In this document: piece after piece, positions 4,016 through 62,626 of the stretch | Layout of the letters: the number at the start of each line of letters is the position of its first letter | Numbering within the stretch: the first letter of the stretch is position 1 | Source of the DNA: a virus | Strand: one strand, 5' to 3' | IMG/VR virus record: IMGVR_UViG_3300010354_000069 | Coordinates: 8,244 to 72,243 of that record | DNA length: 64,000 bases | Position numbers and translations under genes: made by a program | Notes under the pieces: generated by a model | What the model was told of the DNA's origin: nothing | What the model saw: the letters and a program-made list of their open reading frames with translations, nothing else | Database searches by the model: none

Positions 4016-4020
4016 ACTAA

Positions 4021-4120: not shown

Positions 4121-4438
4121 GTGGGTGGTGAAGAGTTGGGTGAGGCGGTTGGCAAAGTGCTGGACCAACTGGCTTCCGTTCTGGCAGACTATCTGCATGT
4201 TGAAAGCAAGCTTCAGGTGCACGCCCTCACGTGGACACCGGAAGCAACGTCAATTTACATTGACGATCCTCAGTTGGCCGGACACATCACACGTCGAGTC
4301 ACTACCGAACTTGGTGACATTCAGGTAGTTGTGGACCACGCAACCCGCGGCCCCGTATCAGTGGAACTTATCCAATGCCCAATATCGAATACACGCTCGT
4401 CAGCGATAACGACATTGAAGACGTTGTCCAGTACCTGA
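4121..4438 (+). CDS. Hypothetical protein
   Basis: AAGGAG SD before GTG; overlaps the polymerase start. Confidence 0.65.
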   Translation: MGGEELGEAVGKVLDQLASVLADYLHVESKLQVHALTWTPEATSIYIDDPQLAGHITRRVTTELGDIQVVVDHATRGPVSVELIQCPISNTRSSAITTLKTLSST

Positions 4439-31821: not shown

Positions 31822-32313
31822 ATGCAGTTTTACGTCAGCGCTTTAGGACCTATAGACACAGGCCGCCCGCTTCACGCCGACGCCGGCAAAACCTTCAACC
31901 ACGTAGGCATTCCTATCTGGTTTACTAGGGGTAGTTTGCACCGTGCTGTACACGTTCTAAATGGACCCTACCACGAACCTACTGGACTTTTCGTGGTGCA
32001 ACCTAACGAAGTGCTGGTGTACTTTGAGGTAAAGCAGCCCCCAGCAGGTTCTTTGCAAGAGCAGACCATGGGACTGCGCCCGGTTACCTACGCAATTCTT
32101 AGTGTCGACCGCAACTTCGTGCATAGCAACAGTTTGCTGTATCAATCAGTAGATCCTGATGCAGACTTTGAAAAAGACGACGATATCGCCGTCTGGTTTG
32201 GAATGACCTTTCCGGCAACTATAGTAGGTAGATTCAGAAAGCCAACGGATACTTTTCAGCCTCCTAAAGAAACTCGTGGCCACATGTTGAAGGACTCCAA
32301 CCTCTACAACTAG
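31822..32313 (+). CDS. Hypothetical protein, last gene of the + arm
   Basis: AAGGA SD; stop overlaps the giant gene stop. Confidence 0.7.
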   Translation: MQFYVSALGPIDTGRPLHADAGKTFNHVGIPIWFTRGSLHRAVHVLNGPYHEPTGLFVVQPNEVLVYFEVKQPPAGSLQEQTMGLRPVTYAILSVDRNFVHSNSLLYQSVDPDADFEKDDDIAVWFGMTFPATIVGRFRKPTDTFQPPKETRGHMLKDSNLYN

Positions 32314-35300
32314 TTGGCTCGCTTTCGAGCAGCACTAGGAATATCTCTACTACCGCTGCGACCCTGTCTGTGATAGTCACGGTCCAGCGTGTCATCCTTG
32401 CCCTTCTTGCCAGCATGCTCTTGATGGATGACCACCTTCTTGCCCTGTGGGTCAACCTCTACCTTAGAAGTACGGCGCTGAGAGTGGTCTTTAGTGCTAC
32501 CCGTCGGCACATCCTTTGCCCCGCTCTTGACACCACCGTGATTAGCCTTGGTATCGACAACAACAGTTGCATTCTTTGACTTGGCGGGGGCTTCTTTACC
32601 ATAGAACACGTTTTGAATGAACTCATCAACGTTTTCAATAACGTCATCGAGCACGTTACGTTCATACTTGTCGGATACCACCGCTTCGACTTCGATTGAA
32701 CCGCTTGAAGAAACGGTACCAGGTAGCGCTTGTTTGCTTGTGCTTGAAACACGTGCAAGCTCTTTAGTGCTACGAACGCTTAGTTCAGCAGCGGATTTTC
32801 CAACACGATACTTGGCGTCAATATGAGCATCAACAGATTTTACAAGGTGCTCGTTAATTTTTCCGTAAGCCCAAATATTTGCAAGAACAATACCAATACC
32901 TGCAAAGGTTCCTGCGATAGCTCCAGGAAGAGCACCAACACCCCCAGCTAGTGTACCGGCGGCAGCGCCTGTCAAAGCCGTCTTTACAACGAAACCAGCA
33001 GCGGCACTAGCCAAGCCAAGAATGCCTATAGTGCTAAGACCGGCCACACCGTGCCCCAAAGCACGCTCTCTAGCAACTCTGTCAGTACCCGCCTCCCTGT
33101 ATTCAACAAAGGTCTTGGATGACTCTACGACCACCATCAAAGGCAACGCAGCTTTGCTAGCTACTGCGGCAAGTTTCGGTGCCCACGTTGTAGCACCAAA
33201 TCGCTTTGTAACAAGAGGAACCATGCGTCCGTAGCCTTCAAGTGCTGCTTGTACAGCAAACAATCCAGTGCTTGCCTTAAAGAAGACTTCCTGCTCAAAA
33301 GGCATTTCGTACCCTTGTTTATGCAGCTTTGCCTTTTGGTCTTCAAAATCCATCCAACTTTTTACAGACATGGCAAGCATGAATAGAGGATTGCCAAGCT
33401 GTTGGCTGAACTCATAACTCTTCATGATCGATGTGTTGGCTAGCCGTTGTTGGTAGATATCTCTGCGGATTCGAGCCTCTGCCTGTTCTTGGCGCGCCAT
33501 AGGACGCTCTCTGGAAGTCTTGTCCAACCTTGAACGAATCTCTTCCTTGCGCTCCACTGTACGTTGAATTCGCTCTTCAGCCTCCTGCAACCGCTCAAGA
33601 GGTTTGCCGGCAGTACCCAAGCGTGCCCAAATATCTTGCTTCAATTGTTTTTGACGGTTTATTTCTTCCTCACGCTCAATCAGGGTTTGCAAAGGACGCT
33701 CACCCCGTGTTGCCTCCGTACGGCTACGAACTTCTTCGCGTCTAGCTTCTGCTACCGACTCGACTGCTCTGCGCTGCTTACGGGCGGCAATGAGCTCGCG
33801 CTGCCTATTTGCCAGAGTTTCTTGGTCAAGGCTATTCAAGCTGCGAGGCGTGGGGTTCTTGCGGAAGTCCCTGACAGCCCTACCCAGAACTAAGCGGCTT
33901 TCTTCATCCGCGGGTACGAAAGTACGCTTGGTGTAGCTAAAAGCTTGTGGAGTCTTTACTGGCTCGTCCGTCACGCTACGCTGAGCGCTCACAACGGGAT
34001 TGATGCTTGAAGCAGCAATGTCTTTTGATAGACGTGCTACTACTGCAACAAGCGATCTACCAGCTTTCAAGTATCTGTGTACGGCTTTTTCAACCAACTC
34101 GTCTGGATTTACAACGATTAGCTGGTCTACGTTACGCTCAACAGCACGCCAGCCTCTACCCAGTAACATAGAATAGCCGGCATAACCAAGACTGGCAATT
34201 GTGCGTGCAAACAATCTGTCAGTAAAGAGGTAAATGTCCCTAGCACCTGTAGATGCAGCCCTGTAAGCAGCTTCTCTAGCTACGATGTATGTCCTACCGT
34301 CACGTTCAATAGTGGTATTGCCAAGGTGCTTAAGAGCGTCACCGTTATCAAACATGCTAGGCTTGTTATACTTGTCGACAAGCAATTCAGCCGCTATGCC
34401 CGCAAATAGCTCTCTAATACCTGTGGACATGAGCTCATGAATAGTAAAAGAAGTAATACCTGGTTTTTCTGATCTACGTCGTACTTCCTCAAGAGTACGC
34501 TCTGCGTTAGAGCGCAGTTCTAGGTAGGTCTGCTCTGCAAGTTTTCCGTTAGGGTCTTGAACACCCATTTCCCTGTACATGGACTTGATGATTTCTCGCC
34601 ACTCCTGCTCATAAACTTCAGGAGCTGCCCTGAAATCCATGATTCTTGCGCCTGGCTTAAAACCGAAAGTCTGAACGTAGTGTGCGCTGCTGTAGTGCCC
34701 CCAACCGCTAGGTTTAATTCCTCGAACACCAGAGTAATCTGTGGCATCGTTTCTGGAAGGTGTCACGTAGAACCCGGCCCCTTCGGCCCAAGTGCCAGAT
34801 ACGTCCAACTCTGGAATTCCGTAAGGACGATAGTCCTGACCGTGGTAGTAAGCCCTGCTTGTAAGCCTGTCGGATATAGCTTGCTTTTCCGCAGTAAAAT
34901 CAACTACACCAGAGCGGGTTGTGTGTGCATCGCGCGCAAGTGTTGAAGTTTCTGGCGCCGCTGTACGAAGCTCCATGTCAAGTAGTTCGTGCGGTAGCAG
35001 ATTTGAAGCACTTTCAGTCTTTGGCAAAGACCTCCACTCGTATTTGGCCCTCTGTTCAGCCGCTCGAGTATCTGCCCGCATTTTCAGCATCAGCCTTAGC
35101 ATGCGAGCTTCTTTTTGAGCAAACCTGATGAGACTGCTGATAGCTCCAGGTTGACTGCTTGCTCTTTGCAACCGGTCTCTGTACGTCTGGTAAGCAAGAC
35201 GGCCAAGAACCGGTGCGGTTGCAAGTAGACTAGTGGCCAGAGTAGCAAAGTGCTCGGGCGTAATCAGAGTGCCAAAACCACTGGAAGCTTCTGCGGGCAT

Positions 35301-38300
35301 TGTAGCGGCTGCAACCAAACCCAAGCCAGTAAAAGCAATGGACATTAGTCGTCCGGAGCGCCCGCCAAGAATGCCTTTACGCTCTGCCGCTCGTTTAGCC
35401 AAACGGCTTACACGGTCTGCGGTACTAGCAGCAACGTGTGAGTAAGGCTCTATATTCCTTGAATACTCGGCGGGTATTACTTCTGGTAGGCTGGTCTCAG
35501 AAATATTGAGAACCTTCGCTATCTTAGTTTTATAGATGTTTATAAGCTCTACAGCTTTGTCCATCTCAACAGAATCTTGTTTAGGAGCAAATTCTTGAAC
35601 TAACCGCTTGGTATAAAAGTCAAGTCGTAAATCCATATCTCTGGTAATGTTACCAGCTGCATGCTTGCGTAGAATAGCATTTTTAATAAGGTCAACGCGC
35701 CTGTCTGTAAAGTATATCTGTTCGTCAGTAAGTCCAGCTGCATCCCTGAGGAAGTTGTACATAGTACGCTGTTCTGGATAAGCAGAGAAAACACTAGTAG
35801 TAGAGTTTACGTTAATACGCAACCTGCGGATAAGCTCTGGCATTACATTTATTGCTCTAGTTTCTACAGCAGCTTCTTCAAGGGCTAGTTCAGGCGCCGT
35901 AGCGTAATGCCCTTTTATATCGTAATCAAAGCCGAATCTAGCTAGAGCGCGCCTACGCGGGCTGTACTCGTGATGCACTTCGTGAGAAAGGATATGAAGA
36001 GTCGTTAACAAGCGTTCCAAAGACTTTTCTCTATATTCAAATGAAGCTACGCCAAGTTTATTTCTACTCTGACGTGCGATATCTAGTAGATACGGAGTAT
36101 ACTTATTTCTAACATTGATGTAAGCCATCATACCGCGCGGAGTGTGCATACCATCCCAGCTAAAAGGCATATTGGTCACTCCAATATCATTCAGCAGAAT
36201 AACAGGAAGGGGTAGGATTCCTCTTCTTTGTTCTCTAGGTAAAGTACTTCTAACAGCCTTTGCAGTTTCGTACAAAGCAAATTGCATAGCAGTAAGTTGT
36301 TTTGCAGTATCAACAAAGTGTCTTAGGCTTGCAACCGATCTTGCACTTATAGTTTTCAAAAAATCTATTGTTTGTCTAGGTTTCAACACAAGGCTCGCAG
36401 TAAGCGCAGTAGCGGTAGCCCCAAAAACACCAGCTGCAGCAAATTTCAGGTAAGGTACTAAAGTGTTAATCAGACTAGGGTAATGCGTAGTAATTTTACT
36501 AAGGTCGGGCTCCACCACAGTTTCAATCCTGAAGTGGGTTGCCGCTTCTGCAGGCATTCCAGCGGCTAGTGCAAGGCCTACACCAAGTAACCCTAGTGCC
36601 AAAGGCTTGGCACCACGCTTGAGGCTTTGACGAGCCTTCTCAAGAAGCTTTGGTTGTAGAGCTTTGAGTGTGCTGCGAACGTAAGTGAAACCTCTTGCTA
36701 CACTGACAGAAGATTTGTCTATGGTAGTAGTAAACAAATGGTGCGGTTTACGAGCAGAAGCAATAATGTCAGAAGAAGCTCTGTACCTGAGTAGCTGTAC
36801 TGTGTATTCACTTAAATTTGCTAAGTTCAAAGCCCCCAACCGCTTTATACGTTTACCTGGAACAACAGCATAAACAGTTGTTTCTCTCGCTTCTTTGGAG
36901 TCCATTAATACAAGCTGACCATTTTCGTTGAAAATGGTATTACGTACTCCCGCGTATCCTTGGCTTACAATACTGTCTCTAAGAGCTGTATGAACTGCAA
37001 CCTCAGAGTTGAAGTTTGGTGGTAGACCTTCAGCAGCAGTAAAACGAGATGTCATAAACTCTACTGCGCTCTTATAAAAGTATTCTACATTGTGTTTGTT
37101 GTCGGGAGTATCAAGAGCGTTAAGCAGACGCAGGAGCTCCGCATTGAACTTACTGCTAGTTTTTTCACTATCATTTACGTGAAGCAGCATAGTCTCAAAA
37201 GTGTGCTGCAACATTGTGCGTACTTCAGTCTTGTACACTTCAGCAGGCTGAGCAAAGTCTATAAACTGTGCAGTAGGGTTTAGCCTTACTTTTTGAACGA
37301 TACCAAACTGCTTTTTGGCCTTTGTTACAAGGGCTCGTACAGTCTTGCCTGCTGAGTTTACAGTAAGACCCGCGTAGTCAAGGGCTTGGCCAACCGTTTC
37401 AGCCATGTAGTAACCACGGCCGCCCCACCAAGAGCCGTGTAAAGAGGCTTCAGGAATACCAGAAGGTGCATGAGTTTGACCGTGGTAGTACGTACGGTTG
37501 GTAATCTGCCTTGAGATATCTTTCTTCAAAGTGGTGAAATCCAAAGCGGTGCGCGTAGGCTCGGCCTCGGAAGCGGGAACAACACTGGACAGAGGTTGAT
37601 TCTTATTGTTACCCCCAAAAAGCTTCTTGACTCCTTCCCAGCCAAGAATTCCGGCTGCAGAGAAACCAAGCTGACTCATCAGCAAAGCGTTGTCTGCGAG
37701 CGATGTGACGTGATGCCCAAACGGTAGCGTAGCTGCTTCAGCGGGCATTCCAGCGGCTAGAGCCAGACCTGTTCCTACCAGCAGGCCGAAGATACCGGAA
37801 GTGCGCTGCCCCCGCTCCCGCCTAGCTTTCTCTAGCTCAGCATCAATAACCGTCACCATAGAACTATCGTTTAAAATTTCGAAAGAAGGTAAGTCACGTC
37901 GTGCAATAGAGCTCAAAGACCTGTGTAGCCTATCAAGAGCTTTTAAACTTTGTTTATAGCTGCCTACAGGACGTCTAATGCTAAATCTGCTGCTATAGGA
38001 AGAAGGTACAAACACGTTTACAGCGTAGTTATTGATAACCTTTCTTATTCTTGTAGCTTGGCTCCGGTTAAGGCGAAACTTCTCTGCAATTTTTTCACTT
38101 AGTAGTTTTACACGATCCTCTTCGACATACAAAGTATCGCTTGTAATATCTGTAAGTGAAAGCAAGGCCCTTGTAAACATTCTTTGAAACTTATAGGTAG
38201 CGACTAAAGGAGCGGTACTTACAGTATGTCCAGTTAGCCTTCCTACAAATTCCCTAAGATGCTCTACGCTACCAATCTCAACAGTAGCTTCTTCTAAGGC

Positions 38301-41300
38301 ATATAGCATAAGCTTGTTTTGTTTACTACCGTAATAGTAAGCTTTTACTATACTTGGTGCGTGCACTAGAGCACCTAGTAAACCAGCACGCTTAATGGCA
38401 GACCTTACCTTTTTCATGTAATAGTCTTTAGCAACAGACGGATTATACTGAGTAGCTATAGTATTGCTAGCGCTATGTCTCAACTCGTGCAGTAGAGTTG
38501 AATAGCTATCACTTTCAGAAGCGGATAAAACTTTAGGTTGCTTATTAAAAGATCTTTCTAAGTCTTTTATGGCTTTATGCGATAAAACTATAAATCCACG
38601 ATCCCTGCGTGGGTATCTGGTGTAATAAGCACCAGAAGCGCTACCAAGCCTTGTATAATGTAGCCTTTGCGCTTCTTCGGGCGTTAAAAGATATTGAGCA
38701 CCGGATGTAGCAGCACCAGGAAACATTTGAGCAAGTGTAGTCTTAGCTTTTCTTAGTAAGTTCTGTCTGTCTATAAAGTTTGGATCACTAGAAAGCGCTA
38801 TTAGTTCTTTGTTATACGCATTTTCTAGAGCTTGCGGGCCAGAAAGCTTTCTGTTAGCAACAACCCTTAGTCTACGGTCTACTAAAAACAGTAAACCTGC
38901 ACCTAGCGTTCCAGCCACCATCGTAGCAAAAACGGACAAACCACCCCCAGAAGCTGCGTGGTGTGCAATCCGCGTAGCGGCTTCTGCAGGTGCGCCCAGC
39001 AGTGCGATGCTACCCAGCGTAATTGCGGGAAGAATACTGCGCTTTGCAAGCTTTAAAGCAGTGCTCTTGACCTTGTAGTACAGATGACTGAGCTTTGGCA
39101 GAATACCTGGCGGGAGCGGTAGCTTTCCGGTTTTCTTGCCATAAACATTGGGATTGAGTCCACCGGTAAAAGAGGGCGGCGTCAAGTTTCCGGTGCTTGG
39201 GTTTAGCGGACTTGTACGTGAAGAAGTAAGCTCGCCCGTACCTCGAGAACCCGCTTGGCTACCACCCAATTCGCCAGAGTCACCAGTACCGCCGCTCAGT
39301 CCATCAGAGCCGGTACCTCCCTGCCCAAAAGGCAGAGACTGCTGACCGTTGCGCCCGGAGGGTGCGGTACCTCTAGGGCTTGGAGTATTGACCAAGAAAA
39401 AGATATTTTCCAAAGTACGGTTTACTAGGTCTTGTGTAGTTTTCTCAACGTCGATGTTGACTTCTTGGCTGGAACCCTTACGGCCAATTGTGACTCGGTC
39501 TCCAATCTTGTTAGTTTTTGCCAAGAGGCCACGACCGCGTCTACGGCCAGGTTTAACGTTACGCGGAGCTTGTACAGGACCCCCTGAACCAAACTTCACG
39601 ATATCCGTAAACATCTGTACGAGCTCTTCAGTCACCTGATTGACAATGGCCGTGCGGTCAACACCTTCCTTCAGGCCCGTACCTTCAATGAGGGCTTCTG
39701 CCAGGAACTGCAGTTGGTCGGTAGCACTGCCTTGGTGAGAAGCCAAACGAGCGAGTAAATTTGCCCTACGCTCTCCGTAATTGATACGCTTCCTGCCTGT
39801 GTCAGGGTCTTGGTCAAAACGACGATTGATGTGTTCAGCAACCTTTGCCAAGTGTTGCATTGCAGCAACACCTTGCTGCAGCCTACCTTCAGCCAAACCT
39901 GTGCGATCTTCACCAAAACCAAACGGCAGGCGTAAGAAATTCAACTGGGAAGCGCCACGCATGACCCTTGCGCGCATGTTAAGTGCAGCACTGCGAAGTA
40001 TAGATGCCTTTACAAGAGTTTCTACAGATGGAGCTGCGGATGTAAAAGTTTTACCGTCTTTTGTATGCCTATGCTTGGCAAAATCAAGAATTCCGCCGCT
40101 TTCCTTATCAAGTAGAAAAGTACTAGAAAGTAGATGCTCCAGCGCCTGTATAACGGAGTTGTTGATCTTGTTTAGGTCAGTGCCAATGTCTTTTGTACGC
40201 TCCTCCTCAATAAGACTGATCTGTTCAGTAACTTCGTGTAGACGAGCAGTATCCTCTGGGGTAAAGTTCTCAGTGTCTTTTTCAAGCTTACGCTCAAGCT
40301 TTTTCCTGATAAGCTCAAGTGTGCGTAGTATTTCTTTTCTTCCCGTAGTTTCGTCATAGGTACGAATATTATCGTAGGCTTCTATGAATTCAGGAGAAAC
40401 AAGAACGGCAGTAGTGGGATTTTTAGCTCCTGTCGCAACTACACCAACAACAGATAGCGGTGAAATAGTTCTATCCGCCGTTTCCGCAGCAAGAGTATGC
40501 CCGGCCAAATGTAATGAAACAGACCCTGCTGAATCTTCAAGAAGTATCCTTGAAGCTACTGAATCAGGCCCAGCTGCAAGCTTTTCAAGAGTGCTGTTAA
40601 AACTTTTGACAAGACTATCAACACCTTTAACTGCATCGTGATCTTCAGGCTTGGGTACATCAAGCACTGAAGAGGGCTTTCTCACTTTTTTCCAGATACG
40701 CCAAACCATAAAGGCTGTAAATGCACCGCTAATCAATCCAGAAATTGTACCGTAGGTAGTATCGTTATCATCATCTTCATCGTACCTATGCTTGCCGTCC
40801 TCATTGGCGTTCTTGTTTATATCTTGATAGTTACGCTTTTCATTACGCTCACCGGTGTCAGTGTACGCGTTTGGATTCAAAGTAATCCTTAATGGTTCAG
40901 TAGAGCCAGGTAGAAGCGCACCACGCCTTGTAAACTCTTGGTTGTACAGGGTCTCGGCAGACTTTGCTATGTTTTCTGCAAAACCAAAGGATTTCCACAT
41001 TTTGGTGTAGGCGCCGGGCAAGCTATGCGCAGCATCCTTGTTCTTGCTGAGATACTCTTCAATTTGAGCCGCAGTAGGAACTTGAGTACTGCCCGTAGGC
41101 GTGGCAGTAGGCGTGTGCATAGGGTCAAGTACAGTACCTCCAGCACGTACTTCATAGTGTACGTGCGGGCCAGTCGAATGTCCGGTGCTACCTTGAATAC
41201 CGATGCGCTGCCCGCGCACCAGAATGTCTCCTACGCTTACGCCGACTTCGTTGGCCGCATCATCTGCCAAGTGCCCGTACAGGATATCAACTGGCTTACC

Positions 41301-44300
41301 CTTGACTTTTAGTTCGGTCCGGACGATTACTACGTTGCCGTAACCACCCTTGACGCCCTTTTCAATAACTCGACCACCCACGAAAGCTACTACAGGAACA
41401 TTAGTAGAGCCAGTCTTGGTGTCGTAGAACTGTATGTCTACACCTTGGTGCAGGTGTGTTCCACGGTCTCTTAGATAAGGGCTGGTGACGTTGTAGCTAA
41501 TGCCGCGCTCCGTTGCCACAGGAAAACCGGTAAGGCTAGGAGTAGAGCGCAGAATAGCGGTGTGCAGCAGCTCAGCGCGCTGTTTTCTAGTAGGTGCGTA
41601 CCCCAGAAAGTGACTAACTTGGTTGTAGGTTTCAGGATCGTCATAGGGCAGGTATTGCCCTCCTCTTGCCATTTGAGTTCTAACGCGCTGTGCAACATCC
41701 CTTGCTTCTGCCTTTGGCATCTTCAAGTTCTTGCTGATGTAAGCAGCAAGATCCGTTGTATTCTCGATGCCCTTGAGAGAGCCAAAGTGCTCGTTGATGT
41801 ACTTGTAGTACTCTACCTGTTTGATGTAGCGCTGTGTTTCCAGCGGGAGTTTGCCACCAGGCCTCAAAGAACGCATGAAGCCAGTAACACCAGCGTTGTA
41901 CGCAGCGGCTACCTCAAGATCCGTAGGAGCGCGACCTAGCTTTTTGACTAGCTCACGACGGAACTGAGCGAGAATATTGGCACCGGTGACAATACTGGTG
42001 CGGGGGTCAAAGAGGTTGAGCTTGCCCGTTGGGTCATGAGCTTCCGGAACAATTTGCATCAAGCCCCTGGCATTCTTGGGGGAAACCATGCGCTCGTTGT
42101 AGTCACCGCCGGTTTCAGCCTGCATGATAGACCTGATAAAGCTCTCGGCCTCACCAGAGCGTTTGCTGGCTTCCGTGATAAAAGCCGAGTACTTCTCAGG
42201 AACCGGGCCAGCACTGCCTGTGCGTACTGGTCCACCGGTTACTTCTGCAAGAGTAGACAGAATAGTACGTCTGCCAGGAACCGCACCTTCAGCTCTTTCG
42301 GCAGCACTTGTTCTGCTGCGAACTTCAAATCCACTCCAACCACCGGTGAACATGTAGTTGTACATGGCGTTAGCACCACCCAGTACAGCCGTTTCATACA
42401 TCAGAGCGCGGCGGTGCAGTTCACCCATGATAATCTGATCTACTGACGGTACGGGCGCAAACTTGAAAGCCCTCTTGGCAGACACATTCCCGCCACCGGT
42501 TCTGGGCCTAGCCATGTACATGGAGGCAAAAGACATGTTCAAGAGATTGTCGTTGGAACTAGACATCAGTCCGGTGTTTGAAAAAGACTGAAGTACTTCA
42601 GGCGCAACTACGGTAAGTAGTGACGCGCCAATACCACGCTTTGTAAAACGGACCTGTTCGGCAATTTCTAGCTTGGCCGCGGTAGACATCCAAGCGCGCT
42701 CGGAAGCAACACCGTAGAAGATGGGAGAGTACGAACGCCACAGTGCGTGCCTGGCAGAAAAGCTTGTCTCTCCGGCATCGCCTGACTCCAGAAGTCCAGC
42801 TTTAATTTGGGTGTTTACAAAGGTATCTGCCCAGTAGTTAAGCAAACCAGCAGCAAATTTTAGTGGCTTGTCAGAAACCTTCTTGTATTCCTTGTTCAGG
42901 GTCATGGACAGCAGGTAATCTGCCGACTGATTCAAGTAACCGGCTGCACCGACGTTAAACGTTCTAAATATCGCGGATACGCCGGTATTCAACTGTTTCA
43001 GGGCATCTACCTTATCAGCGTGTTCCTGCACCCAGCCAATACTGTCGATAAGACCGCCAATAAAGAACTTGTTTACACGGTCACCCCAGTTAAGTTCTTT
43101 ACCCTCTTTCTCTTTTGTTAGTGCTTCTTCGTACTGAGACTTACCTACTGCACTGCTTAGTGAGAATGATGCCCAGCCTACAAGGCCACCAACAAGTAGA
43201 CCCGCAAAGCCTGCAACCCGACCACCTTTTGCTGCCCCAAGCGCTATTGCTCCTGCAGCAGCTAACTCTGAGGTTTTCTTGGTTGCGAGCAGTGTACCGC
43301 CAAGAACAAAGGTTTTCCAAAGTTCAGAAGCACCTTCCTCACGAAACGTTTGTCTGGCCTCTCTAGAAATTGTTGGATCCGCAGCAATTGCAATGTTTGA
43401 TACTGCACCGTAGGCACCGGAGAGGAGCATCGGCCTTACAATAGCTTTGTCAGCAATCTTCATGATTCCAGAAATACCGCCTAATGCAAACGCACCAAGT
43501 CCAATACCATACAAGCCAAATGTCACGGAATTTTCATAAGATTCAGTTGTATCAAGTAGACTCTTGCTAAGAAGCGCCAAAGACGCTAGAAGAGCTGTTG
43601 CTCTAAATCCGTAACCCAGACCAGTCATAAAGCTGGAGAATCTTGTAATCCTAGTTGCGCTTTGAATGTTCTTCGACGCAATCCGCTCTTCCTGGGCGGT
43701 GCTAGCGGTGTGGTGGCTTGGATCTGCTGTGCCTATGGAGCCAGCACGAACCTCGTGTATACCGACGGCTGGAGGAGGTGGGGGAGGTGTACCACCAAGT
43801 TGCGGTTCGGGGACGTGAGCACCAACCGAACGAAGTTTCCAGAACGTGAAAGTCTTTCTGATGCTGCCAACAAACGTAGAAGCTCTCAAACCCGCGCGGT
43901 TCAAGAAGCCAGGCATATCTACAGGTTTAAGGCCCATGACGTCGTCAAAGTCACGGAACACGCCAAAAACAGTACGCTCAAATAGGTTTATTTCCTTAGC
44001 AAAGTCACCACCCGCAGTTAGTCTTGTACGAATGCCCTGCAGTTCGTTCATGGCGGTGAGGTAGCGCTTACCTGGAGACCACCCAGGCGGTGGTGCTGGT
44101 GAACCAGGGCCGTGCCCGGCAAAAGATTCCAGAATAATTTCAAGGCGCCTGATAGTTCCCAGCGTTCTGGTTACATCCTTGGTTTCTGCAAGCGCTTTGA
44201 TATCGCCATAAGTTTCAATGACAGCTCTAGCAATTTGTTGGTAGCCCAGAGCACGGGCTCGACCCGAAATGACACTACCTCTTGGCAATATTCCCTCGCC

Positions 44301-47300
44301 AAATGGCTCGCCGTTTGCCGCGCCAAGCATCGAGAAGCCCCCACCCGGTCTGGGCATCCTCAGTACCGAAGCGTCGGAAGGGTTATACTCAAGAGTAAGG
44401 GGATCCAACACCTTGCCCGCTGACGTCACCTCTACAGCGCGCATCAAGCGACGGATGTCAAAACCCTTAAGGGGATCGTCTGCCTTAAGATTCTTCGTTA
44501 CGTTGTAAGCCGCGCGCAAGGCAGGATCCCTACTAATAGTCAGCAAGGTCCTAGCGGCTGCAATCCCGTGGCCGGCAAACATTGCAGCTGTACCCAAAGC
44601 AAAACCAAGCCAGATGGCACCAATTCGAGTCTGCTGGTTACTGTTGACTTCGCTGTTGGAAAAGTTTAGCAAGAACTCTTCAGGACTACTGTTTCTACTT
44701 AACGGACGAAGAATTTTCTTGTTCATGCCAAAAGGCAATGTATCAAAAGTATCAGAATCATCTTCCATCTCTGTGATAGGCATTCCAGCTGCCTGCTGTG
44801 CAGCCTTGTGCCCCTCTATGTAAGCCATGATGCCCCTGTAAGTAGGAGACTGCTCCAAGGTGGCTAAGAATTCTTGATCAATGCCATCAGGCAATTTAAA
44901 CAGTTCCACCTCTTTGGCTTTTTCATAAAACCTGTTTGCGTACCCAGCGTATTCCTTGGCTAAAGCAGCAACATCGTAGGAATCGTACGGTTTCATTCCA
45001 GGTGCTGTACGAAGCGGGTTGACGATCAGTGGTCTAACGCCCTGAACCAAGTTGTTCTGAGTATCGTAGCGACCCATAGCATAGTGCGTGTAGTAAGCCT
45101 GTTTTGATAGGCGAGAGTATCCGCCTACATATGCTTTTTCACCACCCAAGTAGTCGTTCATCTCTGCTGGCCAAGCTACAAGTGCCGTTCGCGCAAGAGC
45201 CTGACGGTTGCGGAGTGCCAGTTTAAGACCCGGCGACAGGTTGTATACCGGCGACTCCGACGAGAACATGCGCCCCATGAACGCCGGCTTACGAGCAGGA
45301 GCAAATCCTGTCAGCATAGTGTAATCGCCGTAGGTTGCCATCGCCAGCGAGGTCCCGCCGAGTACTTTGTTCTGGGGATTCTGCGGGCGCACGGCTGCAA
45401 TCTTGTTTGACGCAACAGTAAACAGATTACCGAAGCCCATCGAGAAGCGACCTTTGATTCGTGTAAAGCCGGTGGTATCCTCATCGCGCTCGGTTTGCTG
45501 GGCTGCGGCATAACCATGCTGCATGGCCACGATTTCAGGCCCTTGAATAACACTCTCGCTGCTGAAAGCCGAAAGTACCTTTCGTATGCTCCAGTTGATT
45601 CGCTGTGCCAAGCCCTTCGGTGTGACAGGGAATTTGCCAACAATAGGGTTCATTTCTATGGCAAATGAATCGGTTGGTCTTGAGATAATGATTGGCTGTA
45701 CATCACTTATCTTGCGCTCGCCGCTATTGGCATTTACAAGAACACGAAACCCACTTTCCATAAACTTGTTGAAAGTGCTGGTAACAGCGCCTAACGGAGT
45801 ATTCGGATCGTTGTAATCAATCTTGTACCGGTTTATCTGAGATTGTATGTAAGAACCCGGCGTACCCTCATAGTTACGCTGGTGCAGATTGTAAACAATA
45901 CGTCCAGCCTCAAACACCATCAATGACAAACCAATAGTAGCCAAAGATTGACCTGCGCGTACTGGAGCCATGAAACCACTAGAGAACGACCCACCTAAAA
46001 CCTTTGACGCGGTACCGGTAAGAACACCCACGGGTGCAGTCACGGGTAGAGTAACCACCCGCATGAGCGCTCGCATGGCTACACCGGGTCCCCTGAGCAG
46101 AGTACCAACAACGCGGCGAGCGCTAATTCCGCTAGCACCGCTAGTAGTCTCTGAAGTAAGTATGTTGCCAATATTTGTTAGCGGATCAAGAGAAACTCTT
46201 GTATCCTGACCATACTTCAGGTACCCGGTTACGCGCTCGAACAGCGAGGAAGCGGGAGGCTTAACTCCAGTCAATAAAAGCTCTCGAGCCTGGTAGTGTT
46301 TCTTGGCAGCTAGGTTAGCCAGTGCAAACGTCGTTCCTACTGCAAGTGCAGTAAGGGTTGGCCCAGCAATAGCGGCAGCACCTACATTGAGCTGTGCCAC
46401 TGCTTCCACAAGTGTCGATGGCTTGTAGCCTAAGGACATGATGTTCAGAGCAATTTTGGAAGCAAAGCTTGAAGCGCTATTTTCTTTATTACTTACTGCG
46501 TCGTACAGCAAACGATCAAAGTAGTTGTTGGATTCCTTTACGCCCCTTAGCCAGTACTCTAGCTGCTTGTAGCCGCGCTTTTCCATTCGATAGAAAGGCA
46601 TCGACATAGTGCCAGATCCTTGAAGGGGCAGCGGTGTGATGAAGGATATAGCGTAACTGGTGCGACCGCCCTGTGTAGCTGCGCTAAGGAAAAGTGCCGG
46701 ACCACCCATCCAGCCTATACGCAGGCCGTCAATAGACATCTGATTGATTTCAGACTTGTAGGCAGTAACCGAGAAGTTACGGAAAATGTCTAATGTCTTT
46801 TGAATTGTGCCTTGTACAGCCCCAGGATCACCGGTTATTTGCCCTCTAAAACCTTCGTTGTCCAATTGGCGCATGCGGTCACTAGCCGTCATTGCTGCTG
46901 CTTGCTGTTGCGTGACTACCTTCCAGCTGAAATTGTCTCTGTCAGCCTGAATCATCTTGACGGTGTTGCGGTACAAGGCAGTCGGCGTATTGGCAATGAA
47001 CTCGGTTACAGACTTCAGCGCCCCGCGAACGCTATTGAATTGCCTGAAACCCTGCGAGTACATGAAGGTAAGAGCACCAACTTCCTCCTGGGTGCCATCA
47101 GCTTTGGTAACAACAACGTTTCTAGGAACATTGAACATCTTGTTGGCTTGTCTGAAGCTGGTAAAACCTCGTCCAGACAACAGCTCTGTCAGACCTCCCG
47201 CAACGCTGCCACCGACAATACCGGCAAGGAAGGTACCAAAACCTCTACCACGGGTTACTGCCATACCAGCGCCAAAACCCAGCAGCGACGCAATCTTCGC

Positions 47301-49910: not shown

Positions 49911-51890
49911 CTACCAGTCCTTCTGCGTAATCCTTGTATTACGCATTGAACCAGTGTCGGTGTTGCTACTTCTGCGCGGATCAACCAGTTTTGCACGATC
50001 TGCTAGCTGACGCTCCTCAGCAAAGAGATCGTTGATAGCGCGTGCGGTGTGAATCTGTCCGGAAGTCCTGATATTGTTGGAGCCGGTTTCAAAATAGCGG
50101 AACCTACGCTCATCCTGAGAAATTCTGTAGACAACGCAAGCCAAGCAGTCTGACAGATCTTTCGAGCCCTTTGGTTTGGGGTGGTCGATACGACGCCCAT
50201 TCATCAATTTGATTTCAGACAGTTCCTTGTGGAGCTTGGCTGCAGCAGGACTTTGGTCAGGTGGTGGAATGCGTACGCGGTCCTGATCAATCCACTCGCG
50301 CAGTACTTGGTATATCTTGCGCTGCTCGGTCTGGCTAAAGCTGGACTTCCACAGCTCGGTCGAAATGCCGGCAGAGTAGATACGCTGAATCATCATTGCA
50401 CTATTCCAATGGTCGAAAGTCAGCTTCTTCAGGTGGATGGACTTGGATAACTTGATAATCTCGTCGCAGACGTTTTCGTAGTCTACCAGGTAGATGTCGC
50501 CTCGACCCTTATCCACCGGACGCCACTCCAGCACAGCATTTACCTGTACGATCACGTTGCCCGTCAGCGGGTCTACGACAGGATGTGCCGAGAGAAAACC
50601 AAAGCTGTCGTGCTTGAGACCAGGATCGCAGTGACCAAAGCTGAACATCGCACCTTTAACGACTTCCTGTGGAGCAATGACTTCAATAGACGAAAACTTT
50701 CGCGGGCCGTCTGGTCCTTGCTGTACCGAGATCTTTGGAATGTAGTCGACCTGCAACGGGTACTTCGAAGCGCGAGCCAGTGCGTGCTTGTGGAAGAAAT
50801 TCTCTTCCGACCCAGGTCGTACGCCCGCGTAGTCTCGCATTGCCTCAACACCGCGAGTCAGGTATTCGGCCTTGATGCTGGGATGTTCCTCCTTGAGCAG
50901 AGCAAACTCCGGGTTCATATCCCAAGTTGCCAACCTGAATGCCAGAATGTGACTAGCTTCACCCTCAGCGTTGATGAACAGTCTATCCGTCAGGTCGCCC
51001 TCGCACCAAGCAGAGCTGATGACAATCTTTTTTGAGCCGAAGCGGGACAGCGTCAGGGTACCCTTGCCGACGTTGGCATAGAGATCGACGCCAGATTGAC
51101 CAGAGCCGCCTTCAATACCAAAGCGGTTAGCCTCGTCCATCGCAAAGATCATCAACGTACGACCGACCAATCCCGAGCTGTTGCTATGACCGGCCCAGAT
51201 CGTGATGTTCTTGGAAGGGTACTGAATATCCAGCGTGTTGATGATCAGCTTGCCTTGCTGCCGCAAGCCCTGAAAGTAAGGTGCCTGCTCAAGTCGGCCC
51301 TTGATGTTGGCAAACAGAGTATCCTTGGACTGCACTTCAGTTGTAGCAAGAACCAGCAAGTGAATGGGTGATCCGGCCATCAGACCAAATTCCTTGGCGG
51401 GATCCGGGTGCTGAATCAACTTGAAGTACTCGTAAGCACAGACAACGGAGATGATTGCGGTCTTCGAGCTTCTCATCCCCGCCTCAAGGCTGAGTTCTTG
51501 GTAGTGCTGGCCCTCAACCCAAGTGGTCTTGCCCTCGATGGCCCAGTTTTGCAGAATCTCGCGCTCGTCCCAGTAGTCAGTAGCCTTCTTGCCGTACTTG
51601 GCGAGCTTGCCCTGAACCTCTTCCGGCCGTCCTTTGAACAGCGAACCCCACGTACCACGCTCCAGCGGTAGTTGGTAGAGTGCTTTAAGAATGGCTCGCT
51701 GGCTAGGCCACAGTTCAATCTCAAGGATATCCGTCGCAAACTCGACAATATCCATCTCGAGCTTGGCCCGCTGCATCCCTTCGGAGATCAGCTCCGAGAG
51801 CAGCAGGTCGCTGGCGTTTACTGGTTTGCGGTTGCCTGGTGGCACTTGATTAATCCGTAAGAACGCCTCTGTACTGGAACTTGGCAGCAC
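49911..51890 (-). CDS. terL: Terminase large subunit
   Basis: AGMRSSKT, FAMDEA, ISS, HCDPG...DS, TFDHWNS, RIDHP..GSKDLSD; exact start uncertain. Confidence 0.88.
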   Translation of the reverse strand: MLPSSSTEAFLRINQVPPGNRKPVNASDLLLSELISEGMQRAKLEMDIVEFATDILEIELWPSQRAILKALYQLPLERGTWGSLFKGRPEEVQGKLAKYGKKATDYWDEREILQNWAIEGKTTWVEGQHYQELSLEAGMRSSKTAIISVVCAYEYFKLIQHPDPAKEFGLMAGSPIHLLVLATTEVQSKDTLFANIKGRLEQAPYFQGLRQQGKLIINTLDIQYPSKNITIWAGHSNSSGLVGRTLMIFAMDEANRFGIEGGSGQSGVDLYANVGKGTLTLSRFGSKKIVISSAWCEGDLTDRLFINAEGEASHILAFRLATWDMNPEFALLKEEHPSIKAEYLTRGVEAMRDYAGVRPGSEENFFHKHALARASKYPLQVDYIPKISVQQGPDGPRKFSSIEVIAPQEVVKGAMFSFGHCDPGLKHDSFGFLSAHPVVDPLTGNVIVQVNAVLEWRPVDKGRGDIYLVDYENVCDEIIKLSKSIHLKKLTFDHWNSAMMIQRIYSAGISTELWKSSFSQTEQRKIYQVLREWIDQDRVRIPPPDQSPAAAKLHKELSEIKLMNGRRIDHPKPKGSKDLSDCLACVVYRISQDERRFRYFETGSNNIRTSGQIHTARAINDLFAEERQLADRAKLVDPRRSSNTDTGSMRNTRITQKDW

Positions 51891-52423: not shown

Positions 52424-52885
52424 TCAGATGTCTCCCGTAACTGCAGGATGCAGTACAACTACCAAGTAGAGTGTTGGAAGTAGTGTATCAGAGCTGTACC
52501 CGATATAAAAGAAGTCGCCGTGCTTGAGCTGCTGTAGCCACAAATTATCGTAGATGTGCGCGCCAAAGGTCATAGGGCGCAGATGCGGTACTGTGAGGTC
52601 GTCGTCAGGGTTGTCCACAAAATCTACCGAGACCGTGTAAACGGGCGTGAAGGTCTTGTCGTAGACCGTGTAGCCTTCAATATCAACGTTGTTCAGTCTT
52701 ACGTAAAAATTAGCGGGTTCTACTATAACCACACTGTGCGGGTGCGTGATCATCTTTTCAATCAGTTCAGGCTCAAGTGCAGCAAGACTCCTGATGCCCT
52801 GTGGAGCTTTGCGTATGATTGGATTCAGGACGTCTAGAAGCTCAGGATCGTGTAGGTATACTTGAGTAATACCATTAATTTTCAT
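52424..52885 (-). CDS. Hypothetical protein
   Basis: Coupled ORF. Confidence 0.7.
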   Translation of the reverse strand: MKINGITQVYLHDPELLDVLNPIIRKAPQGIRSLAALEPELIEKMITHPHSVVIVEPANFYVRLNNVDIEGYTVYDKTFTPVYTVSVDFVDNPDDDLTVPHLRPMTFGAHIYDNLWLQQLKHGDFFYIGYSSDTLLPTLYLVVVLHPAVTGDI

Positions 52886-62400: not shown

Positions 62401-62626
62401 ACACCTTGTTGAACTCGCCCTGAGCGGGGTTGCCACCTATCAGATTGCCCATGCGAAGGAAGCCGGTCGGGTACATTTCCCGCACAAGCTTTGCGGTTTC
62501 GTCCGCCAGAATGCTGTTGTAAATGACGGGGACGCCAGCGATGTTACCCTTGCTGTCCCGAACGGGAATCTCCCCGGGGTTGTTTCCGGTGGCAATGTAA
62601 CTAGCTGGAATTCGCAGTGAAGACAT
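59453..62626 (-). CDS. Large tail/baseplate structural protein with a CBM-like domain
   Basis: R.DLIFLELW, VYALPVARV.R.N, RPDGL..IIDLRH, NMLRNSHF..GW. Confidence 0.7.
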   Translation of the reverse strand: MSSLRIPASYIATGNNPGEIPVRDSKGNIAGVPVIYNSILADETAKLVREMYPTGFLRMGNLIGGNPAQGEFNKVFLDALGGEVEVLARGYRVKLATNERVPFVLTDGPAGGYRDDLIFLELWFPGLTSGGRTISHRWRIVEDVDFAAYPGGIDDPKVKPLADLGLLANVPFVKLNPITDVALKDPGLYTAAVPAPTFDSSSDTGLDGNPYYLVYALPVARVKRINKAAYDKDTNPNGADVPGWSAGGVSSRPDGLWHNVVDSTQIIDLRHTVQFANAVPQEFERTIYDQLTNRLTSNGTLRKVNGHLGNGGMRGYFGDIPVTKRVNTSINMLRNSHFASIAGTGVATGWQKFYSPISSNLATQGALSAAVPKGQNLARPASTPEDKFGIKTSISGFNSRNFTVRVGYTPRPELSREDAVLVFEFWPQNADVEVAGAEPLFAITSPYLTQQTETPQEITGHFDSPFFWQNLDVYVYTLGTSAQLTLNYIDIKADKRLLPVIEVTDGDDFVIARTAELANIDATLPLTNVVILDGVTGSLLGTSAGGQVTRSGLYDLQIALSQVPSNGDVKVEFNVDFPAGCGFSEIYETPLKFEHTGYPFMGFVSSAEATHTLAASEVGSALEANTTLTVVNPSVGAYGVKGRIRLVSDGTTSFTLPTLVQGVRIAVPLAVYSLVGGSETNLTLSNVYRNSFSTTLTVPATVGQSSITVSSTTGMRVGASIYIGAELKTIAGIAGAVVTLNNAVTVVHDIGATVQGDGRYSFTLSGSPVASGENVYVDVALEAPACITDPKANGITKLFRTVVAAKPAAAAATVFIPLGGTSLGRIASTACSSVFVDGVAEATGGVTVAQVSGGVNLTFTSQKTGLVEVALQLEYELDQSLDIATYYLASIPALISTVPIEAELELLAEPKLLVHTKGTGGADDNGTFTELPFVRDPNLTSSNIALSGNTAVRPFLGNVPIVINKLGDLPLFAGRKFVLGDLLEAGFEVEGPPLSAALMHRSVLMAYVSYQGTRMLLVAQRNRLDSRTRVSSDSDNPADPPLIVGLYQPNGRPIAVN

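Follow-up and report, generated by a model that had tools for sequence, protein, structure and literature searches.

In an uncultured freshwater phage, a giant late protein carries alternating zincin-like and ADP-ribosyltransferase-like modules, each preceded by a conserved junction cassette

The giant late gene and its cargo section

The window, a stretch of 64,000 nucleotides from IMG/VR virus record IMGVR_UViG_3300010354_000069, comes from an uncultured freshwater phage and contains a giant ORF that runs for 17.6 kb without a stop (Table 1). Its length is counted from the first TTG, while the gene caller placed the start at the ATG at 49662-49664, which gives a protein of 5,784 aa. The genes for an amidase and for the large terminase, whose nearest relatives are those of myophages, lie immediately upstream, and searches of the phage contig, which is about 35% complete, recognised no gene for a head protease, a portal or a capsid. 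The giant product is a late protein with at least 15 hydrophobic peaks along the chain. Like two neighbouring late ORFs, it has no Cys, here among 5,866 residues.

The cargo section consists of four modules of about 400 aa each, which fill aa ~3610-5300, the last third of the protein, in the order zincin-like (M1), ADP-ribosyltransferase (ART)-like (M2), zincin-like (M3) and ART-like (M4), each with its own junction cassette (J1 to J4) in front. Every motif that an earlier sequence-only reading had quoted for the four modules was found in the minus-strand frame of this one ORF; LLHELRH of M1 begins at aa 3806, GSWWGGRGYY of M2 runs from 37436 downwards, and TYYHGQ of M2, LSHEVHH of M3 and AYYHGQ and GTWAEGAGFY of M4 are likewise there. 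With a lytic transglycosylase (SLT) and a peptidase M23 domain, both cell-wall-cutting and recognised by Pfam upstream of the cargo, four further modules of two kinds and an adjoining terminase gene, the protein combines several unrelated enzymatic domains in a late gene context, and its placement among phage polyvalent proteins in general is upheld.

Table 1. Features of the giant ORF (window positions; aa counted from the first TTG)
Feature	Position	Strand	Remarks
Giant ORF	32310-49910	minus	5,866 codons counted from first TTG
Lytic transglycosylase (SLT) domain, aa 2578-2676	41883..42179	minus	Pfam PF01464, E 4.3e-12
Peptidase M23 domain, aa 2820-2930	41121..41453	minus	Pfam PF01551, E 1e-16; PHROG peptidase/endolysin families
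J1 junction cassette, aa 3611-3691	38838..39080	minus	basic stretch at each end; between them a hydrophobic helix with PAEA, a loop and another hydrophobic helix
M1 zincin-like, aa 3692-4025	37836..38837	minus	HELRH 38475-38489; ALEEATVE 38277-38300
J2 junction cassette, aa 4026-4106	37593..37835	minus	carries GLALAAGMPAEAAT
M2 ART-like, aa 4107-4423	36642..37592	minus	YYHGQ 37476-37490; GRGYY 37407-37421; DYAG 37368-37379; GYAG 36948-36959
J3 junction cassette, aa 4424-4524	36339..36641	minus	carries identical GLALAAGMPAEAAT
M3 zincin-like, aa 4525-4840	35391..36338	minus	HEVHH 35970-35984; ALEEAAVE 35862-35885
J4 junction cassette, aa 4841-4918	35157..35390	minus	carries ...ATMPAEASS
M4 ART-like, aa 4919-5300	34011..35156	minus	YYHGQ 34836-34850; GAGFY 34767-34781; DYSG 34728-34739; GYAG 34176-34187
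C-terminal hydrophobic-helix cluster, aa 5577-5690	32841..33182	minus	borderline Pfam DUF6861

Duplication, composition and identity of the modules

BLASTP aligned M2 with M4 at 28% identity over 270 aa (E 1.6e-20), with a core block of 44% identity over 71 aa, and their Smith-Waterman score of 199, compared with 35.1±5.2 for shuffled sequences (z 31.6), was reached by 0 of 300 shuffles. M1 and M3 also resembled each other above chance (BLASTP E 6.2e-4; Smith-Waterman score 90 against 39.2±6.2, z 8.1, 0 of 300 shuffles), and the four cross pairs of a zincin-like with an ART-like module gave z values of 0.7-2.3. The same codon was kept at just 35 of the 76 identical M2/M4 residues. These comparisons indicate that M2 and M4 are clear paralogs and that M1 and M3 are older ones, and this paralogy supports the proposal of the sequence-only reading that a unit, here of two mutually unrelated modules, was duplicated long ago. 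The 14-mer TGACCGTGGTAGTA, said there to be identical at 34837 and 37477, is indeed present at both positions and corresponds to the YYHGQ codons. Within 32310-40000 there is just one other exact repeat of at least 14 nt; of the five identical 14-mer pairs in this interval, four are overlapping windows on a single junction repeat, and fifty mononucleotide shuffles gave 0.2 pairs on average and 3 at most.

The cargo modules are compositionally foreign to the phage. GC3 was 0.325 (0.28-0.33) in M1, 0.344 (0.28-0.38) in M3, 0.411 in M2 and 0.423 in M4, while aa 1-2560 of the giant protein had 0.511 and the 17 other ORFs a mean of 0.594 and a minimum of 0.423. Three of the four junctions were nearer to the phage's own composition. 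The AT-richness ascribed to the cargo stretch relative to the N-terminal half of the gene is real (0.325-0.423 vs 0.511) but patchy.

None of the four modules was recognised in Pfam, NCBIfam, PHROG, PADLOC or PDB-sequence searches, no relative of them was found among 1.84 billion representative proteins, and sequence searches yielded no relative of the giant protein or of the phage. Three further samples, which belong to two other studies, yielded contigs with the same sequence at ≥99% identity; they fall within all four modules, one of them, an X3 contig, spans J3, and none contained a credible joint skipping a module. The idea of exchangeable cargo thus gained no support, as no relative was found and the three other samples had the same arrangement.

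The giant protein contains two HExxH motifs (HELRH and HEVHH) where 0.11 are expected, both in the paralogous M1 and M3; two or more arose in 19 of 2000 shuffles of the protein. ALEEA[TA]VE, located 63 and 33 aa downstream of HExxH, respectively, is the best-conserved M1/M3 block, and its Glu residues are invariant (E3873, E3874 and E3878). In a low-confidence AlphaFold2 model of M1 from a two-sequence alignment (mean pLDDT 46.4), HExxH was helical, as in zincins, and ALEEAxVE, a candidate source of the third-ligand Glu that zincins have on the following helix, lay on a separate helix; the model was all-helical, with no strands and with the zincin core sheet absent. Pfam MPTase-PolyVal (PF18818) had no match at E≤10 on the modules or the contig, and hhalign of the zincin-like pair against five N4-type MPTases gave a null result, aligning only 10-12 columns (P 0.16-0.18). 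The zincin identity assigned to M1 and M3 was not borne out by these searches or by the model.

ART-PolyVal domains are described in PMC5512222 as having a His in strand 1, an aromatic residue or Tyr in strand 2 and an Asp in strand 5. Six motifs were collinear between M2/M4 and the family prototype, from Roseovarius Plymouth podovirus 1. hhalign weakly aligned YYHGQ and G-x-G-[YF]-Y of both modules with YHGT and G-x-F-x-T (P 0.025) and set GYAG of both, again weakly, on G-[YH]-D-[GA] (P 0.0084 and 0.018), while cross-controls gave P 0.16 and 0.66. By this last placement, both M2 and M4 have Ala at the position of the strand-5 Asp, which is invariant in 5/5 roseophage members. Pfam ART-PolyVal (PF18760, threshold 31.2 bits), with which the prototype as control scored 36.5 bits, had no match at E≤10 on M2, M4 or the six-frame contig. 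When 200-aa tiles were scored with HMMs of five true ART-PolyVal and of five N4-type MPTase domains, the modules did not stand out, and no score was above about 3 bits. The AlphaFold2 model of M2, from the two-sequence M2/M4 alignment, was too uncertain for calling a split beta-sheet ART fold with an NAD+ pocket (mean pLDDT 37.8, pTM 0.29), and it is in this model alone that the motifs have visible strand positions. As a lead only, ART-PolyVal is found on 22% of the members of the named atlas cluster closest to M2 (score 0.75). The claimed ART identity therefore failed to find confirmation in the Pfam search, the hhalign P values, the Asp position or the M2 model.

These results leave a substantial, if minority, chance that the YHG...GYAG modules do not work as ADP-ribosyltransferases, being instead another fold with chance or convergent motifs or degenerate ART-like binding domains. 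HMM and profile searches gave M2 and M4 no significance, Ala replaces the family's Asp, and a regex derived from the ART-PolyVal family matched only 1/5 true members, so that a motif match is no membership test. On the other hand, the six motifs are collinear with the prototype, their combination arises in 2 of 3000 shuffles, and M2 and M4 both keep H4143, Y4168 and D4178 at 31% overall identity. Acid-less ARTs can moreover be active, since PARPs without the catalytic Glu are described in PMC10789625 as able to stay so.

Junction cassettes and proposed processing

The conserved cassettes that had been postulated between cargo modules are present, one of about 80 aa before every module, although their make-up had not been described. 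Each opens with a basic stretch and a hydrophobic helix that is rich in Gly/Ala and ends in P-A-E-A; after a short loop come a second hydrophobic helix and a further basic stretch. In all four junctions, the 15 aa ahead of helix 1 contain 5-6 Lys/Arg, helix 1 has 16-19 uncharged residues with 47-58% Gly/Ala/Ser/Thr, positions -3 and -1 are Ala, the inter-helix loop of 15-40 aa has a net charge of zero or below, and helix 2 (KD17 1.25-1.99, weakly hydrophobic in J2 and J4) is followed by 3-5 Lys/Arg. P-A-E-A is invariant in 4/4 junctions, Glu included, and J2 and J3 share 14 identical residues, GLALAAGMPAEAAT, in which 8 of the 14 codons differ, all synonymously; the cassettes are under strong purifying selection.

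A signal-like regex run over the giant protein returned the four junctions plus one partial match at aa 5614, and nothing else. The basic n-region, hydrophobic h-region and small -3/-1 residues of Sec signal peptides were present in 4/4 junctions. Sec signal peptides are N-terminal, but all four segments are internal, and no usable internal start codon was found at the junctions: J1 has no candidate, and those at the other junctions lack a Shine-Dalgarno-like motif. Judged by its sequence, the cassette resembles a membrane hairpin of in-out-in topology that bears a site of the signal-peptidase type, and its first helix resembles a signal peptide ending in A-x-A.

We tentatively favour, at somewhat below even confidence, a delivered polyprotein that is anchored and perhaps cut at the junction hairpins and that carries zincin-like peptidases and acid-less ART-like enzymes. 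The giant protein would travel in the virion and be ejected into the cell envelope like muralytic tape-measure or inner-capsid proteins, of which virion lysins are often domains according to a review (PMC6116005). The weakly hydrophobic junction helices would insert into the inner membrane, so that the SLT/M23 part would come to lie in the periplasm while the four modules would line the cytoplasmic face. Cutting at PAEA, within the short periplasmic loops, could follow and would free membrane-tethered effectors; host signal peptidase I is the simplest candidate for the cutter, with a phage head protease or the built-in zincins as alternatives. Interspersed zincins have been predicted to process polyvalent proteins, which were proposed to be delivered with DNA (Iyer et al. 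2017, PMC5512222). M1 and M3 would be gluzincin-type peptidases, and M2 and M4 NAD-using members of an H-Y-[acid] lineage whose acid may have given way to Ala (H-Y-Ala); the latter two would serve as mono-transferases, NADases or binders. The fully specified scheme, in which signal-anchor hairpins partition the chain flavivirus-style, host signal peptidase I cuts at PAEA|A and the products are tethered zinc peptidases and H-Y-Ala ARTs, is improbable as a whole. The strict conservation of M-P-A-E-A-A-T exceeds what signal peptidase I needs, a point against the favoured delivered polyprotein, as is the weak hydrophobicity of the second helices of J2 and J4.

An ordinary, uncut polyvalent protein, whose junctions are flexible, channel-forming or packaging segments comparable to hydrophobic stretches in tape-measure or ejectosome proteins, whose modules act in cis and whose PAEA is structural, is unlikely, but it has precedents. 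Muralytic domains occur in known tape-measure and inner-core proteins (PMC6116005), the zincin-bearing virion polymerase of phage N4 enters the particle unprocessed according to PMC5512222, and cleavage of the giant protein is a prediction only. Invariance of P-A-E-A in 4/4 junctions and the identity of 14 J2/J3 residues despite 8 synonymous codon changes are nevertheless tighter than is usual for a linker, and the order basic, hydrophobic, A-x-A fits a cleavable signal. The same invariant Glu could mark cutting by a head-maturation protease in the capsid (PAE|A), in the manner of T4 or phiKZ, with the modules injected separately. This reading is doubtful: the SPN3US and phiKZ proteases cut ejection proteins after Glu (A-x-E or S/A/G-x-E; PMC5694885) and the nearest terminase relatives are myophages, but the third residue before the cut would be Pro, where the motifs published in PMC5694885 have Ala, Ser, Gly, Leu or Ile, no head protease was recognised on the incomplete contig, and the two flanking hydrophobic helices and the charge pattern would be left unexplained. 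A late integral membrane protein of the infected cell that is not carried in the virion, inserts co-translationally by its many hydrophobic helices, is trimmed by signal peptidase in the producing cell and has a role such as lysis control or superinfection exclusion is very unlikely: signal-peptide-like segments are normally read co-translationally, an amidase endolysin gene adjoins and hydrophobic peaks recur along the chain, but the pairing of SLT with M23 in a giant late product encoded by packaging genes' side is the usual signature of virion-borne lysins, the lack of Cys fits particle proteins, and the helices, weakly hydrophobic and rich in Gly/Ala, resemble SAR domains, which can leave the membrane.

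Comparison with known systems

The motifs that M2 and M4 have in common with the ART-PolyVal (PF18760) prototype, aa ~1023-1150 of the podovirus virion RNA polymerase, are YHG, G-x-aromatic, A-x-D-Y-A, V-x-L-x-P, G-Y-x-G and a hydrophobic strand; both differ from it in the absence of an HMM match, in Ala for the invariant Asp and in a helical insert of ~95-140 aa between their halves. M1 and M3 resemble MPTase-PolyVal (PF18818) and gluzincins in HExxH followed 33-63 aa downstream by a Glu-bearing segment, here in two interspersed copies, but lack an HMM or profile match, and the core sheet is absent from the low-confidence model.

The junction segments recall the Sec signal peptides and SAR domains of phage endolysins described in PMC9239132 in their basic residues, their 16-19-residue stretch of about half Gly/Ala/Ser/Thr and their A-x-A end, but they are internal, number four per chain and are each paired with a second helix. 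If our reading is right, one chain with internal signal-like helices used by host signal peptidase would parallel the pestivirus and flavivirus polyproteins (PMC8002126, PMC8310223); those belong to eukaryotic RNA viruses using the ER, whereas the cut in the phage protein is predicted. Among literature titles and abstract openings, we found no phage precedent for a polyprotein cut by host signal peptidase. The ejected head proteins of T4 (Alt), phiKZ and SPN3US, as treated in PMC5694885, are likewise particle-borne enzymes, cut by the prohead protease at a short motif ending in Glu, and SPN3US gp47 has a predicted membrane helix too; P-A-E, however, misfits A/S/G-x-E, and no protease gene was seen on the partial contig.

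With the phage-type polyvalent proteins of PMC5512222 the protein shares a giant late chain, interspersed zincin-like and ART-like modules and muralytic domains in the same chain. It differs in that its four cargo modules match none of the Pfam families given there and are separated by membrane-hairpin-like cassettes; the main text of PMC5512222 contains 'transmembrane' and 'signal peptide' 0 times each. The giant protein is an unusual variant among known "polyvalent" phage proteins.

The giant gene and its surroundings

The giant gene of this uncultured freshwater phage is the last in a minus-strand order of amidase, large terminase and, directly after it, the giant gene, and replication is encoded on the plus strand (DNA polymerase, clamp and loader, helicases, primase and ribonucleotide reductase). 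In the public gene call the protein has 5,784 aa and begins with an ATG (49662-49664); residue numbers used here follow the 5,866-codon frame. The IMG/VR virus record containing the window has 72,243 bases and is estimated to be about 35% complete. The best matches of the large terminase were Microcystis and Microcoleus myophages, at about 33% identity, and no close relative was found in IMG/VR viral contigs; the phage is therefore an isolated lineage, present in freshwater and aquatic metagenomes.

The entire giant gene was covered, with 0 differences, by contigs of the probable source run, and three further runs (X2-X4), from two other studies of aquatic and freshwater metagenomes dated 2017-2024, contained short contigs of at least 99% identity. 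These contigs fell within all four of the C-terminal modules M1-M4, one from X3 (36287-36656) spanned the cassette in front of M3, and in the parts covered none skipped a module, indicating that the architecture is not an assembly artefact; it was invariant in these samples. The one join listed among the contigs, 47925 to 49907 in one X3 contig, lay far upstream of the modules and was set aside, as its shorter side had 28 letters, below the reliability guide.

Coordinates of features in the window and in the giant protein
Feature	Window	Strand	Residues	Remark
Giant ORF	32310-49910	-		5,866 codons from first TTG
Large terminase	49911-51890	-
Late ORF	52882-55002	-		706 aa
Late ORF	56830-58923	-		697 aa
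Late ORF	59453-62626	-		1,057 aa
SLT domain			2578-2676	Pfam E 4.3e-12
Peptidase M23 domain			2820-2930	Pfam E 1e-16
Third AT-rich island	~40010-40730	-	~3060-3300	GC3 0.28-0.39; after hydrophobic helix 3054-3072
J1, P-A-E-A			3641
M1, zincin-like			3692-4025
J2, P-A-E-A			4056
M2, ART-like			4107-4423
J3, P-A-E-A			4453
M3, zincin-like			4525-4840
J4, P-A-E-A			4872
M4, ART-like			4919-5300
C-terminal Gly/Ala-rich hydrophobic helix cluster	32841-33182	-	5577-5690	Borderline DUF6861, 28.2 bits (cut-off 28)

SLT and M23 were the only Pfam domains in the giant protein besides the borderline DUF6861, a family reportedly mentioned in one preprint. A charged, coiled-coil-like stretch (aa ~5300-5570) precedes the C-terminal hydrophobic cluster. 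No cysteine occurs among the 5,866 residues, and the six other ORFs checked have 3-14 each and the replication proteins 5-14 each; two late ORFs nearby (706 and 697 aa) lack cysteine as well. The three late ORFs gave no informative family match, the 706-aa product having a single weak match to a PHROG of unknown function; searches of the 706- and 1,057-aa products against PDB sequences yielded nothing credible, and tblastn of the former against phage records yielded no match. No tRNA gene, and no Rfam family at gathering score, was found in window 1-64000.

Duplicated modules and their putative enzyme identities

The sequence-only reading had placed alternating zincin-like (M1, M3) and ADP-ribosyltransferase-like (ART-like; M2, M4) modules in the giant protein, derived from an old duplication of a two-module unit. 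All the motifs it quoted were present, as was the identical 14-mer at 34837 and 37477, which corresponds to the codons of YYHGQ. This 14-mer and one repeat within the junctions were the only exact repeat families of at least 14 nt in 32310-40000, where identical pairs averaged 0.2 per shuffle (50 shuffles). On the plus strand of the 64-kb window there were 106 identical 14-mer pairs versus 5 within 32310-40000, so further repeats lie elsewhere in the window.

M2 and M4 aligned by BLASTP with an E value of 1.6e-20 (28% identity across 270 aa, with a core block of 71 aa at 44%) and by Smith-Waterman with a z of 31.6, a score reached by none of 300 shuffles, and are clear paralogs. M1 and M3, with an E value of 6.2e-4 and a z of 8.1 (0/300 shuffles), are paralogs too, more distant than M2 and M4 but real. 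The four cross pairs remained at noise level (z 0.7-2.3), and a tile-by-tile self-search of the whole giant protein detected no internal repeats beyond modules and junctions. As the same codon was kept at only 35 of the 76 residues identical between M2 and M4, the duplication is old, and the paralogy of both pairs supports the proposed copying of a two-module unit.

The AT-richness noted earlier is real, and sharper than described, in a map of third-position GC content (GC3) in 120-codon windows. Minima of 0.28-0.33 and 0.28-0.38 fell within M1 and M3, respectively, and the junctions reached 0.42-0.53 at J1, J2 and J4 and 0.36 at J3; the N-terminal part of the gene has 0.51, and 17 other ORFs have a mean of 0.59 and a minimum of 0.42. 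The cargo domains are thus compositionally foreign. The third AT-rich island, which matched no family or PDB sequence, may be a further foreign cargo module.

Protein homology searches with aa 3620-5300 and aa 1-3600 returned only the giant protein itself, and an M2+M4 profile had no match at E<=0.001 among 1.84 billion representative proteins. In 50,697 phage records tblastn matched neither M2 nor the N-terminal (2,478 aa) or C-terminal (2,906 aa) part; in 72,556 plasmids it matched none of the four modules, and megablast of the giant gene against phages was negative too. Alignments of the ART-like and zincin-like pairs led to no confirmed relative in viral, metagenome or genome contigs, and single modules or pair profiles found nothing credible in Pfam, NCBIfam, PHROGs, PADLOC or PDB sequences; weak kinase-like rows (E 0.25-0.79 and 0.21) were judged noise. 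The comparison with polyvalent-protein families to which the sequence-only reading had pointed was negative, the Pfam models ART-PolyVal (PF18760) and MPTase-PolyVal (PF18818) having no match on the contig at a cut-off as loose as E<=10. M1-M4 are thus orphans at the sequence level. A language-model atlas offered leads only: the nearest named cluster to M2 scored 0.75, with ART-PolyVal on 22% of its members, and the clusters nearest to M1 were unnamed (0.93), with Peptidase_M78 on 18% of a 0.89 cluster.

HExxH, expected 0.11 times in the giant protein, was found twice, once in each of M1 and M3; at least two copies arose in 19 of 2000 shuffles. ALEEA[TA]VE, the block most strongly conserved between M1 and M3, lies 63 and 33 residues downstream, and together the two elements match the HExxH-plus-Glu pattern that Iyer et al. 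describe for MPTases (PMC5512222). With no G-x-x-H following the HExxH, the pair does not look like a metzincin. When the pair was aligned by hhalign to N4-type MPTases, the HExxH helix alone aligned (P 0.16-0.18). The AlphaFold model of M1 from a two-sequence alignment was too uncertain to use (mean pLDDT 46.4, pTM 0.40) and placed HELRH and ALEEATV in two separate helices, with no sheet.

For the ART-like pair, the virion RNA polymerase of Roseovarius Plymouth podovirus 1, named as prototype by Iyer et al. (PMC5512222), carries by Pfam an ART-PolyVal domain (aa 1023-1096, E 9.8e-9) and an M90/SprT-like zincin (aa 1252-1387); with four roseophage homologs per domain it formed our ART-PolyVal and MPTase reference sets. 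A search for short relatives of its ART domain found none. By eye, M2 and M4 are collinear with the prototype over YHG, G-x-aromatic, A-x-D-Y-A, V-x-L-x-P, G-Y-x-G and a hydrophobic strand, and hhalign aligned the pair weakly on the same motifs (P 0.025 in the N-terminal half and 0.0084 and 0.018 in the half with GYAG; cross-controls 0.16 and 0.66). HMMs built from the five ART-PolyVal and five MPTase members did not single out the modules among 200-aa tiles. A family-derived motif regex was dropped as a membership test because it matches only 1/5 true members; its motif combination arose in 2/3000 shuffles and occurs nowhere else in the six-frame contig. ART-PolyVal is described as defined by a His in strand 1, a Tyr in strand 2 and an Asp in strand 5 (PMC5512222). 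The Asp is invariant in the five members, within G-x-[YH]-D-[GA], whereas M2 and M4 lack it and have G-Y-A-G there; the earlier pairing of the two GYAG motifs was recovered by an E-INS-i alignment, and missed by default MAFFT and BLAST. ARTs without the catalytic acid are reported to remain mono-transferases in some cases (PMC10789625), so the missing Asp does not decide activity. The AlphaFold model of M2, likewise from two sequences, was too uncertain to use (mean pLDDT 37.8, pTM 0.29); it places short strands at R-G-Y-Y and at T-Y-Y, just ahead of H4143; Q-A-L-D-Y is helical in it, and GYAG is followed by two strands.

Joints between the modules

P-A-E-A occurs four times in the giant protein, 397-419 residues apart and each time directly before a module. 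At the DNA level the joints form a repeat family of 42 nt, with copies 83% and 64% identical to the reference copy and a 17-nt copy at J1, at spacings of 1257, 1191 and 1245 nt. In each joint the 15 residues ahead of the first helix contain 5-6 Lys/Arg (chain average 12.6% Lys+Arg), followed by 16-19 uncharged residues (Gly/Ala/Ser/Thr 47-58%), P-A-E-A (Ala at -3 and -1), a loop 15-40 residues long and of zero or negative net charge, a second hydrophobic stretch (17-residue Kyte-Doolittle mean 1.25-1.99) and 3-5 Lys/Arg in the next 15 residues. All four thus share the basic n-region, h-region and A-x-A layout of a Sec signal, and a regex for a basic residue, 12-24 small or hydrophobic residues and A-x-A matched only them, with a partial match at aa 5614. 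By the positive-inside rule, this pattern is expected of a helical hairpin of in-out-in topology with a signal-peptidase-type A-x-A site in its outer loop. The joint reads as a two-helix cassette of about 80 residues with the look of a signal peptide, rather than a short peptide. The peptide GLALAAGMPAEAAT is exactly common to J2 and J3 despite 8 of 14 codons differing, all synonymously; the peptide is therefore under strong selection and no recent copy. In composition the first helices also resemble the SAR domains found in phage endolysins, for which a run of about 20 weakly hydrophobic residues (half Ala/Gly/Thr) behind basic residues has been described (PMC9239132). Of the sequence-only reading as a whole, the duplication and the conserved cassettes between cargo modules were real, zincin and ART are plausible candidate identities, and the exchange of cargo is a conjecture; the reading is thus supported in part.

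Internal translation starts were rejected as the cause of the joint pattern, since no usable starts were found: J1 has no in-frame ATG, GTG or TTG among the 37 codons scanned ahead of the helix, and none of six candidate starts at J2-J4 has an upstream Shine-Dalgarno-like motif. The junction DNA pattern had two matches in viral contigs, both judged chance, one on another gene's non-coding strand and one without a preceding hydrophobic stretch. The second helix of J3 and the start of M3 (aa 4494-4555; ~36246-36431, minus strand) weakly matched PADLOC RTasSLATT (E 6.7e-4 and 1.5e-4), and J1, J2 and J4 gave nothing with the PADLOC model of the two-helix SLATT domain.

Proposed deployment and comparison with known systems

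In a single chain, muralytic domains precede a two-module unit that has been duplicated; the joints are hairpin-like and strictly conserved, and the cargo domains are compositionally foreign. We propose that the giant protein would travel in the particle and then be ejected; virion lysins are described as typically being domains of tape-measure or ejected inner-capsid proteins (PMC6116005), and ARTs as often encoded beside packaging genes and packaged (PMC9503650). Hydrophobic segments at about aa 2232-2250 and 3054-3072 would flank SLT and M23, the weakly hydrophobic helices of the joints would insert into the inner membrane, leaving the four modules on the cytoplasmic side, and the joint loops would be cut at PAEA.

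Among candidate cutters we ranked host signal peptidase I first, as it would fit the n/h/A-x-A layout of the joints, although M-P-A-E-A-A-T is conserved beyond what this enzyme requires. A head protease of the kind seen in SPN3US and phiKZ, cutting behind the invariant Glu, is a further candidate; the motif described for those phages has A/S/G three residues ahead of the cut, whereas the joints have Pro there (PMC5694885). No head protease was found on the contig, an absence that is not evidence against one in an incomplete record. The built-in zincins are also a candidate, zincin processing having been proposed for polyvalent proteins generally by Iyer et al. (PMC5512222).

Domain separation and cellular placement in giant polyvalent phage proteins are still mostly predicted. 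The joints are long, strictly conserved and readable: a helix resembling a signal peptide leads to an A-x-A site and then to a return helix. They offer exact residues to mutate and, in signal peptidase I, a named host enzyme. If they work as read, the phage would be placing injected effectors at the membrane by means of the host's machinery for secretion and processing. Since both module types are orphans and the ART-like pair lacks the catalytic acid, each type may represent a new lineage of enzymes or be a pseudo-enzyme; should the modules prove ordinary, this would be one more polyvalent protein.

Polyvalent phage proteins with zincin and ART cargo are a published class. Among the literature titles and abstract openings listed there was no precedent for phage polyproteins with internal signals, ejection proteins with transmembrane segments and an ART, polyvalent proteins with transmembrane segments, or signal peptidase acting on tape-measure proteins, and the main text of the polyvalent-protein paper (PMC5512222) contains neither 'transmembrane' nor 'signal peptide'. 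Judged from its sequence, the giant protein differs from the known class in its predicted two-helix joint cassette, in that both of its cargo types are sequence orphans, and in an ART-like type without the Asp.
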